64,000 nucleotides of DNA, taken from a bacterium (GTDB taxonomy: Bacteria; UBA8248). The position numbers and the translations under genes were made by a program. The notes below the pieces were generated by a model, which was given only the letters and a program-made list of their open reading frames with translations, made no database searches and was not told where the DNA came from. The stretch is taken from the NCBI GenBank assembly GCA_965203325.1, contig OZ241875.1:3872001-3936000 (forward strand). The letters run 5' to 3'. Within the stretch, counting starts at the first letter, position 1, and each line of letters starts with the position of its first letter. This document shows, piece by piece, positions 57,615 to 58,442 of this stretch.

Positions 57615-58442
57615 TTATTTCGTCACCGCGTCTTGTGTGTGTGTTTCATCGGTACTCGCCAGATATTCCCGAAGCCCGTCCTGGCTTTGGGTCAAGGCCA
57701 TGTAGCGCCTCATTTCTGTTTTGTCGACCCCGTAAAATGGATGGCAGCTACAAGGAGACGCGCCGCCCGGCGTTTCCACGACTGCTTTGACGAGAAAGCC
57801 TGGAATGGTGGTTCTCTCCGGTTCCGCCGCGATTTCTTCGGGGTCTACGATTTTCTCGGTCGTGAGAATGACCCCTTTTTGCGCCGCGCGCGTCATTTCA
57901 ACGTCGAATTGCTGATTGCCCAGGATTTGTGCGTTTCCCTGCGCATCTGTTTTCTGGACGTGGATCAACGCCCAGTCCGGCTTGAGGGCGGGAATCGCAT
58001 AGAGTTCCTCTTTCGTGTAGGGGTCTTCAATCGTATAGATGCCGCTTTGCTCCGGAATGTCGCTCCCGTCGAATCCTCGAATGGGTTGGAAGGGAACGCC
58101 GTAGGCTGCGGCCCGCAGCCCAGCAAGTACGCTGGCTCAGGCGTGTTCGGTCAGGCCGGCCAATCCTTTCTCTATCGCCTTTCGATAGTGAGGTGCCAAT
58201 CCGAATTCCGCCTCGAATGTAACAATGCCGCTGATGATTTTCTTCACGGCGCCTGCGGCGCAAAGGAGATCGGCGTCGTAACCGGGAGACGGCTTGATGA
58301 GCGTGAGGTCCTGAAGACCCGCGCGCGCAATTTCGCGGATGAGGGCGGCGGGTGTTCTGTGCAATAAGGTTCCGCCGGGACTGATCGCGTCTCCCTCCTC
58401 GATGAGGGAAGCGGCTTCTCGCAAGTGAACTTGTTTGCTCAT
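57615..58442 (-). CDS. Family I CoA-transferase alpha subunit with in-frame TGA at codon 102 (probable selenocysteine, otherwise a nonsense mutation)
   Basis: ORFs 58137..58442 and 57615..57968 share a frame and are joined by 56 stop-free codons (ASVLAGLRAAAYGVPFQP...DPYT...IPALKPDWA). The read-through product is 275 aa and ends 2 nt before the beta-subunit ATG. Confidence 0.85.
58102..58122 (-). promoter_or_regulatory. Candidate bacterial SECIS hairpin
   Basis: mRNA UGGGCUGCG-GGC-CGCAGCCUA forms a 9-bp stem whose G-starting loop begins 24 nt after the UGA. Confidence 0.6.

Follow-up and report, generated by a model that had tools for sequence, protein, structure and literature searches.

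Heterodimers built on the fold of the coenzyme A (CoA) transferases do not all transfer CoA. In glutaconate CoA-transferase of Acidaminococcus fermentans (GctAB, PDB 1POI), the family I enzyme from which automatic names are taken, the two subunits both belong to Pfam family PF01144 and follow one another in adjacent alpha-beta order. Glu54 of GctB forms the covalent CoA intermediate, and this residue is missing in IpdB too, according to PMC5380842. IpdAB (PDB 6CON, 6CO6, 6CO9, 6COJ) is a hydrolase that cleaves the ring of COCHEA-CoA in Mycobacterium tuberculosis and in Rhodococcus jostii RHA1. AibA/AibB of Myxococcus xanthus (PDB 5MZW and related entries) is a 3-methylglutaconyl-CoA decarboxylase, and in PMC7756340 Cys56 of AibB is described as replacing the conserved catalytic Glu of the glutaconate CoA-transferases. 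Here we analyse a 64,000-nucleotide stretch of a bacterial genome of the GTDB lineage UBA8248 (assembly GCA_965203325.1, contig OZ241875.1, positions 3,872,001 to 3,936,000; hereafter the window), which carries on its minus strand, at 57615..58442, the gene for the alpha subunit of another CoA-transferase-fold heterodimer. From its sequence and that of its relatives, the single in-frame TGA of this gene, at 58139-58137, is very probably a selenocysteine (Sec) codon, decoded in a SelB-dependent manner to give a 275-residue alpha subunit. Overall, we consider it likely that the locus encodes a Sec-containing, non-canonical enzyme of this fold in which the alpha-subunit Sec, or the Cys of its relatives, is catalytic.

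The frame runs from an ATG at 58442 to a TAA at 57617-57615 and comprises 275 sense codons and one internal TGA (58137..58139, minus strand), the predicted codon for residue U102. In translation the TGA stands in the context LTEHA-U-ASVLAGLRAAAYG, or, at greater length, ...GLAGLTEHA-U-ASVLAGLRAAAYGVPFQP.... A plain listing of open reading frames (ORFs) cuts the gene into a 101-residue ORF (58137..58442) and a shorter downstream one. A preliminary description of the window had read the two as a single intact 275-codon frame split in the ORF track by one TGA, and the translation bears this out. Among the 10 PF01144 matches in the 4.39-Mb single-contig genome, an internal stop is present only in this gene. 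A contig from a different study, of a sponge metagenome, spans 58005-58253 with one difference, at 58194. Two further contigs were assembled from RNA libraries, which is no proof of transcription or translation: one, from a relative about 93% identical, spans 57943-58443, and the other spans 58146-58334. The metatranscriptome contig of the 93%-identical relative stops 1 nt upstream of the ATG (58443) and is followed there by sequencing adapter, which could hint, weakly and from a single contig, at a transcript 5' end near the start codon.

The TGA is conserved among close relatives. Six-frame searches, made first in 41 relatives and then in all 51 Nitrospinota genomes, found 35 orthologues of 63-100% identity in 34 of the 51, each with exactly one TGA. 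They come from five genera: 21 of 23 genomes of the window's own genus carry one, as do 4/4, 1/1, 5/5 and 3/4 genomes of four genera of the same family, and no TGA orthologue was found by this search in the remaining Nitrospinota genera and families. Three orthologue rows also contain a TAA, in each case the true stop of a slightly shorter protein. The TGA falls at the same alignment column, with no further stop or frameshift, in all 29 orthologues that were extracted for this check, the remaining six being counted by TGA number only. Compared with the window's gene, the ratio of nonsynonymous to synonymous substitution rates (dN/dS) is 0.084-0.135 upstream of the TGA (8 pairs) and 0.015-0.148 downstream of it (9 pairs), with dS in those pairs reaching about 2. 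Purifying selection thus acts on the alpha gene both before and after the TGA, and the gene is intact.

These observations bear on the simplest alternative, that the gene is a nonsense pseudogene or that the TGA is a sequencing error. A single premature stop in a family not listed as containing selenoproteins would fit such an explanation. It does not account for the same TGA in 35 orthologues down to 63% identity and in the contig of an independent study, nor for the low downstream dN/dS at such synonymous divergence and the absence of other stops or frameshifts from 29 sequences, and we give it next to no probability. The possibility of a sequencing error, raised in the preliminary description, is answered by the recurrence of the TGA in independent assemblies. 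A scan of genome contigs with the single protein returned close Nitrospinota relatives and one archaeal locus, and no others; the archaeal locus (L069), in a metagenome-assembled genome of a Candidatus Methanofastidiosia archaeon, contains an alpha-like gene 38% identical to that of the window.

In more distant relatives the column of U102 is occupied mainly by Cys. The seven Nitrospinota paralogues inspected, at 44-54% identity, all have Cys there, in the context EHAC, EHVC or ENAC. Among the 120 listed database homologues the column holds Cys in 107 and another residue in 4, and 10 start after the column. The preliminary description had asked whether homologues carry TGA or Cys at this position, and both are found, the former in the 35 orthologues and the latter in the paralogues and in most of the listed homologues. 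The 10 late starters include C-terminal fragments of 166-167 residues that belong to Sec orthologues (P0155, P0196), one C-terminal fragment being named "hypothetical protein [Candidatus Tectomicrobia bacterium]", and a 101-residue N-terminal fragment (P0010) is also among the database proteins; public gene calling has therefore treated this TGA as a stop. None of the listed homologues has "selenoprotein" in its name, and relatives bear the JGI name "glutaconate CoA-transferase subunit A". One database relative of 215 residues (P0036) has its first approximately 46 residues joined to "..VIAGLRAA", so that the Cys/Sec segment is gone, whether by a true deletion or through an artefact of assembly or gene calling. 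In one Nitrospinota genus, an alpha paralogue of the Cys type (about 49% identity) comes directly after the Sec-type alpha/beta pair, a natural Sec/Cys tandem (loci L036, 1237-3667, and L074, 4102-6526, both on the minus strand).

The alternation between Sec and Cys extends beyond Nitrospinota-type sequences. Metagenomes were scanned with an alignment of four database fragments of 167-170 residues that start just past the column, an alignment of nine sequences being too divergent. Of the 80 loci recovered, 79 span the U102 column, and in these the column is a stop in 35, always TGA, and TGC or TGT in 44; as the query was built from suspected Sec fragments, the ratio of 35 to 44 does not measure how frequent the two forms are in the population. 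The Sec loci represent several lineages, distinguishable by the contexts TENS-U-PVIYAGMRAAS, EHA-U-ISLVAGLRAAA, EYT-U-IGLATGLRAAV and EEHA-U-MTLVAGLRAAS. A quick maximum-likelihood tree of 89 rows, calculated with every row coded as C at the U102 column, groups the Nitrospinota Sec genes in a single clade with a support of 100 and requires at least three changes between Sec and Cys, of either direction.

Downstream of the TGA lies a hairpin that resembles a bacterial Sec insertion sequence (SECIS). It occupies 58103..58121 on the minus strand, with an 8-bp stem (58121-58114 paired with 58110-58103) and a GGC loop (58113-58111); the stem begins 15 nt and the loop 24 nt after the UGA. The 9-bp hairpin proposed in the preliminary description, 58122-58102, is indeed present, including one G-U pair and a closing U-A pair, with conservation confined to the inner eight pairs. 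The same 8-bp stem is given independently by the RNAalifold consensus, and 100% of its cells are paired in 18 orthologues. In bacterial SECIS elements the apical loop lies 16-37 nt after the UGA and has a G among its first bases, and the loop of the alpha gene, which starts with G, agrees with this placement.

The codons that form the hairpin are frozen. When synonymous-codon entropy was calculated in 7-codon windows over the 29 extracted orthologues, codons 108-114 (GGG CTG CGG GCC GCA GCC TAC) gave the lowest value in the gene, 0.13 against a median of 1.01. The sole variants there are GCC to GCT, which turns a G-C pair into G-U, and GCA to GCG, which turns U-A into U-G, so that pairing is kept. 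Cys paralogues have the same AGLRAxA residues in other codons. The same tendency is seen in the metagenome sequences, where entropy in the +6..+12 window is 0.80 for 27 Sec genes (rank 6 of 196) and 1.51 for 40 Cys genes (rank 185 of 194).

Comparison across lineages adds covariation to codon conservation. An alignment of the 27 sequences that share the register of the hairpin (8 of 29 from Nitrospinota and 19 of the 31 different Sec sequences from metagenomes) has 98.6% of its cells paired, as opposed to 33-50% in slid controls. Compensatory double changes affect two of the pairs, A-U replacing C-G in 11 sequences and G-C in one, and the covariation score was reached by none of 500 shuffles. 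Some of these compensatory changes alter the protein too (Leu to Met, Ala to Ser). Twelve metagenome Sec sequences in which the register is shifted by one codon were omitted from this alignment; they are identical to one another at GGGCTGCGTGCAGCCTC, where they form a stem of 6-7 bp with a CGUG loop. A second, small hairpin of 5 bp directly after the UGA (58123..58136, minus strand) is weakly supported: 83% of its cells are paired and one of its pairs is seen as C-G, G-C and A-U, yet that pair is unpaired in 8 of 18 sequences and the RNAalifold prediction does not contain the hairpin.

Several properties of the larger hairpin count against its being a SECIS element. The folding energy of the +10..+45 region, -15.2 kcal/mol in Sec forms and -13.9 kcal/mol in Cys forms, does not separate the two (p = 0.07). 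The Nitrospinota sequences show no variation in the hairpin that would yield covariation (term -0.26). No Rfam family matches it, a permissive scan of 57900-58300 having given just a chance match to a snoRNA. Finally, a loop of 3 nt is at the small end of the range of bacterial SECIS loops. GC-rich sequence coding for AGLRAAA folds in both forms, and the evidence for a SECIS element is therefore the frozen codons and the covariation, not stability.

The 101-residue and 166-167-residue fragments found among public gene calls would also be expected if the gene were truly split, the TGA ending a 101-residue polypeptide and the C-terminal part being made from an internal start. No start codon is conserved after the TGA, however: over codons 103-125 of the 29 orthologues, GTG occurs at 105 in two sequences and at 121 in one, with no other ATG, GTG or TTG. 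In the structural model the break would separate a strand from a helix within one compact domain, and a split gene leaves both the Cys of the relatives and the frozen hairpin unexplained. We regard a split gene as highly improbable.

The genome is equipped to decode UGA as Sec. It encodes selA (571.4 bits, NCBIfam cut-off 267.9), selB (392.8 bits, cut-off 242.25) and selD (333.2 bits, cut-off 125), and ARAGORN detects a tRNA-SeC with anticodon TCA. The sel genes, which the preliminary description had proposed to search for, are thus present. The selD gene (G000:C1:1726679-1727641, minus strand, locus L019) itself contains one in-frame TGA, in the context KAGG-U-GSKLGP, so that its product too is a selenoprotein, and is predicted to form a long stem-loop after it, with a shape unlike that of the alpha-gene hairpin. 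TGA is also the commonest stop codon of the genome, closing 1924 of 3802 stop-to-stop frames of at least 300 codons, and therefore has not been reassigned genome-wide. This last point bears on an explanation in which read-through of the TGA inserts a residue other than Sec, either by such reassignment or by near-cognate suppression with Trp, Cys or Arg. A frame that is open and conserved past the TGA is what read-through of any kind would produce. However, the genome has the complete sel system, and alternation of Cys with TGA together with a downstream hairpin is the signature of Sec; we hold non-Sec read-through to be extremely improbable.

The proposal that the TGA is a Sec codon and not a nonsense mutation is thus upheld by the sel genes, the conserved TGA, the Cys homologues and the independent assemblies taken together. 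In the mechanism we envisage, SelB carrying Sec-tRNA(Sec) would recognise the hairpin, 15-33 nt downstream of the UGA on the translating mRNA, and insert Sec at codon 102. The gene shares with the selenoprotein genes of the E. coli fdhF type the in-frame UGA, the Cys homologues, the G-starting loop 24 nt on, and selA, selB, selC and selD in the genome. It differs from them in matching neither an NCBIfam selenoprotein model nor an Rfam SECIS family; NCBIfam release 20 contains no model for the family, and none of its models scored above the cut-off with the protein.

As to the protein itself, the alpha subunit matches Pfam PF01144 (CoA_trans) with 76.4 bits, the cut-off being 23. Among solved structures, those nearest to it in sequence are AibA (1.1e-31), GctA (1POI_A; 3.8e-31) and IpdA (2.8e-30), AibAB being the best sequence match for both subunits. 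An AlphaFold2 model calculated from a 22-row alignment has a mean predicted local distance difference test (pLDDT) score of 94.1. With this model, Foldseek again returns IpdA, GctA and AibA as the best matches, at template modelling (TM) scores of 0.85-0.91, and places IpdA first (0.90-0.91, 31% identity). Helix 102-114 of the model, which comes directly after strand 96-99, starts with U102.

The residue that faces U102 differs among the three relatives, being Gln in GctA, Gly in AibA and Glu in IpdA. The GctA segment EDYSQ, which the preliminary description had cited, is recovered in the alignment with 1POI_A, where U102 faces the Gln of "edysq". The comparison with IpdA is the most informative. 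In the aligned region the R. jostii IpdA chains 6CO6_A and 6COJ_A differ solely at the residue that faces U102 (E versus A), and the title of PDB entry 6COJ is "IpdAB E105A COCHEA-CoA complex"; U102 is therefore the counterpart of Glu105 of IpdA. Glu105 is reportedly the catalytic base of that enzyme. The suggestion that Sec occupies an active-site position has thus gained in probability through the alignment of U102 with a residue mutated in 6COJ. When the query is taken together with the 150 best-matching representatives of the family, the residue at this column is E in 62, C in 29, G in 15, N in 14 and H in 7.

The beta subunit points to a function other than CoA transfer. Its gene, on the minus strand at 56860..57612, encodes 250 residues and begins with an ATG at 57612, 2 nt past the TAA of the alpha gene; it matches PF01144 with 73.9 bits, and its best PDB relative is AibB (6.3e-35). 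Between the HAP and GS-DP motifs the alignment with AibB is ungapped, and Cys56 of AibB faces Val62, with Glu61 one residue earlier. The canonical catalytic Glu is absent from this subunit, as it is from all beta subunits examined. The motif ..LIEVAGSVDP occurs in 22 of 22 beta subunits examined beside Sec orthologues, the beta subunits of three Cys paralogues have ..YLNIPGGVD, and in none of these 22 and three is there a Glu at the position of GctB Glu54. The same holds for 66 metagenome beta subunits of both Sec and Cys kinds (0/66), where N, S or T precedes V or I. Glu61 itself, one residue before the canonical position, is found only in the Sec clade of Nitrospinota. The absence of the beta Glu from all beta subunits examined means that the Cys/Sec clade lacks the residue that defines family I CoA-transferases, in which it forms the glutamyl-CoA thioester, as do AibAB and IpdAB. 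The description of the locus as a family I CoA-transferase with an intact beta subunit therefore needs to be divided: PF01144 is found in both subunits and the genes are 2 nt apart, but Val62 stands in the place of the catalytic Glu.

Because the CoA-carrying Glu of the beta subunit is replaced by Val, and by analogy with AibAB and IpdAB, the balance tips towards an alpha/beta pair that is not a canonical CoA-transferase and in which U102 is a catalytic residue. With the beta Glu gone, a reaction of another kind, such as those of AibAB and IpdAB, is more probable than the modified CoA-transfer chemistry put forward in the preliminary description. At the N-terminus of its helix, in the column of IpdA Glu105, U102 could act on an acyl-CoA or a related carboxylate, whether as a catalytic nucleophile or by acid/base catalysis, and selenium would provide a more reactive version, with a low pKa, of the Cys that most of the clade would use.

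Each of the described systems resembles the locus in part. GctAB shares with it the PF01144 subunits and the gene order, but GctB Glu54 is not conserved in the beta subunit and GctA has Gln at the Sec column. AibAB shares the fold, a function other than transfer and the loss of the beta Glu; it differs in having Cys56 of AibB where the beta subunit has Val62, and the Gly of AibA where the alpha subunit has Sec. IpdAB is likewise a heterodimer of this fold, with IpdB lacking the catalytic Glu as the beta subunit does, and with IpdA Glu105 facing U102. However, the column is Sec or Cys at our locus and its relatives and Glu in IpdA, the identity of the alpha subunits is 31%, and no steroid-catabolism neighbours were seen at the locus, which has AhpD-like, RraA-like, UxaA/SAF and ferredoxin-like genes instead. 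By analogy, a selenolate or thiolate at this column suggests nucleophilic or acid/base chemistry unlike the activation of water by the carboxylate of IpdA. A more specific version, in which the Sec or Cys is a covalent nucleophile that either forms an acyl-selenoester or attacks a keto group (thiolase-like or retro-Claisen C-C cleavage), is a tentative possibility that we would not put on the same footing.

The genes around the alpha/beta pair are relevant to the function of U102. Downstream of the beta gene on the same strand, an RraA-like gene of the HMG-aldolase family (56133..56774, minus strand; PF03737, 112.7 bits) is probably co-transcribed with alpha and beta; it is the sole hint of a pathway at the locus. 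In the divergent orientation lies a gene for an AhpD-like protein of the CMD family (58634..59188, plus strand; PF02627, 52 bits, with TIGR00778 above cut-off), which contains a C-x-x-C motif, NGCHFCANMH, and matches NCBIfam NF053654, "YciW-related (seleno)protein", weakly (83 bits, cut-off 310). The order AhpD-like (divergent), alpha(Sec), beta, RraA-like is kept in four Nitrospinota genera (g1, g17, g19 and g22); in a fifth, alpha(Sec) and beta are followed by the Cys-type alpha paralogue. The partners of the enzyme in Nitrospinota are accordingly an RraA-like aldolase/decarboxylase and a thiol oxidoreductase of the AhpD type. Upstream of the AhpD-like gene, on the minus strand, is a split UxaA/GarD-type dehydratase, consisting of a SAF-domain protein (60411-60683) and a large subunit (59230-60408), which is found beside the cluster in some genera only and whose arrangement we take to resemble that of the two-subunit sulfolactate sulfo-lyase. 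A small thioredoxin-like [2Fe-2S] ferredoxin-type protein (60705-61046, minus strand) is encoded near the cluster in several genera, and in a low-GC genus its gene is directly beside the AhpD-like gene.

The AhpD-like protein may be a redox partner of the Sec enzyme, and this is the starting point of the main functional rival to catalysis by U102. In that rival the Sec is not catalytic but serves as a redox switch or has a protective role, for example through a selenenyl-sulfide that the AhpD-like neighbour reduces, and the chemistry is carried out elsewhere, for example by Glu61 of the beta subunit. Most known selenoproteins are redox proteins, the C-x-x-C neighbour is conserved in divergent orientation in four genera, and Glu61 adjoins the canonical position in Nitrospinota. 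However, the U102 column is the one mutated in IpdA E105A, and it alternates between E, C and U across the family, as expected of a catalytic position. The AhpD-like neighbour and Glu61 are, moreover, absent in the other Sec lineages, and we judge a purely regulatory or protective Sec to be unlikely.

Some considerations nevertheless temper the case for catalysis by U102. The role proposed for this residue leans on the alignment with IpdA and on the function reported for Glu105, and Glu61 of the beta subunit might be a CoA carrier. Nor is the gene neighbourhood general: seven loci of other Sec lineages share the beta subunit alone, their further neighbours being transporters, an aminotransferase, hydrolases and others.

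A full-text literature search returned no selenoprotein of the CoA-transferase or glutaconate type, several selenoprotein catalogues lying outside its reach, and the words "CoA" and "transferase" are absent from the main text of the BSepDB article, its family table not included (PMC13326102). The recoding itself is of the ordinary kind, and it takes place in a protein family and a catalytic arrangement of which we could not find a description in the literature searched. As public gene calls cut the gene into a 101-residue piece and a "hypothetical protein" of about 166 residues, a widespread enzyme has been mis-annotated.

The analysis brings to light a large and uncharacterised branch of the CoA-transferase superfamily, whose chemistry probably depends on a thiolate or a selenolate. 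The alternation of Sec and Cys at a defined residue amounts to a natural experiment for finding the reaction. A protein fold is added to the selenoproteome, and a selenoprotein to the aerobic marine Nitrospinota, many of which are known from sponge metagenomes. If the residue were in fact a covalent nucleophile, the pair would represent a new reaction class in the CoA-transferase fold and a rare selenoenzyme with non-redox acyl chemistry, in a family that would be common among environmental bacteria and that split gene calls would have kept from view.

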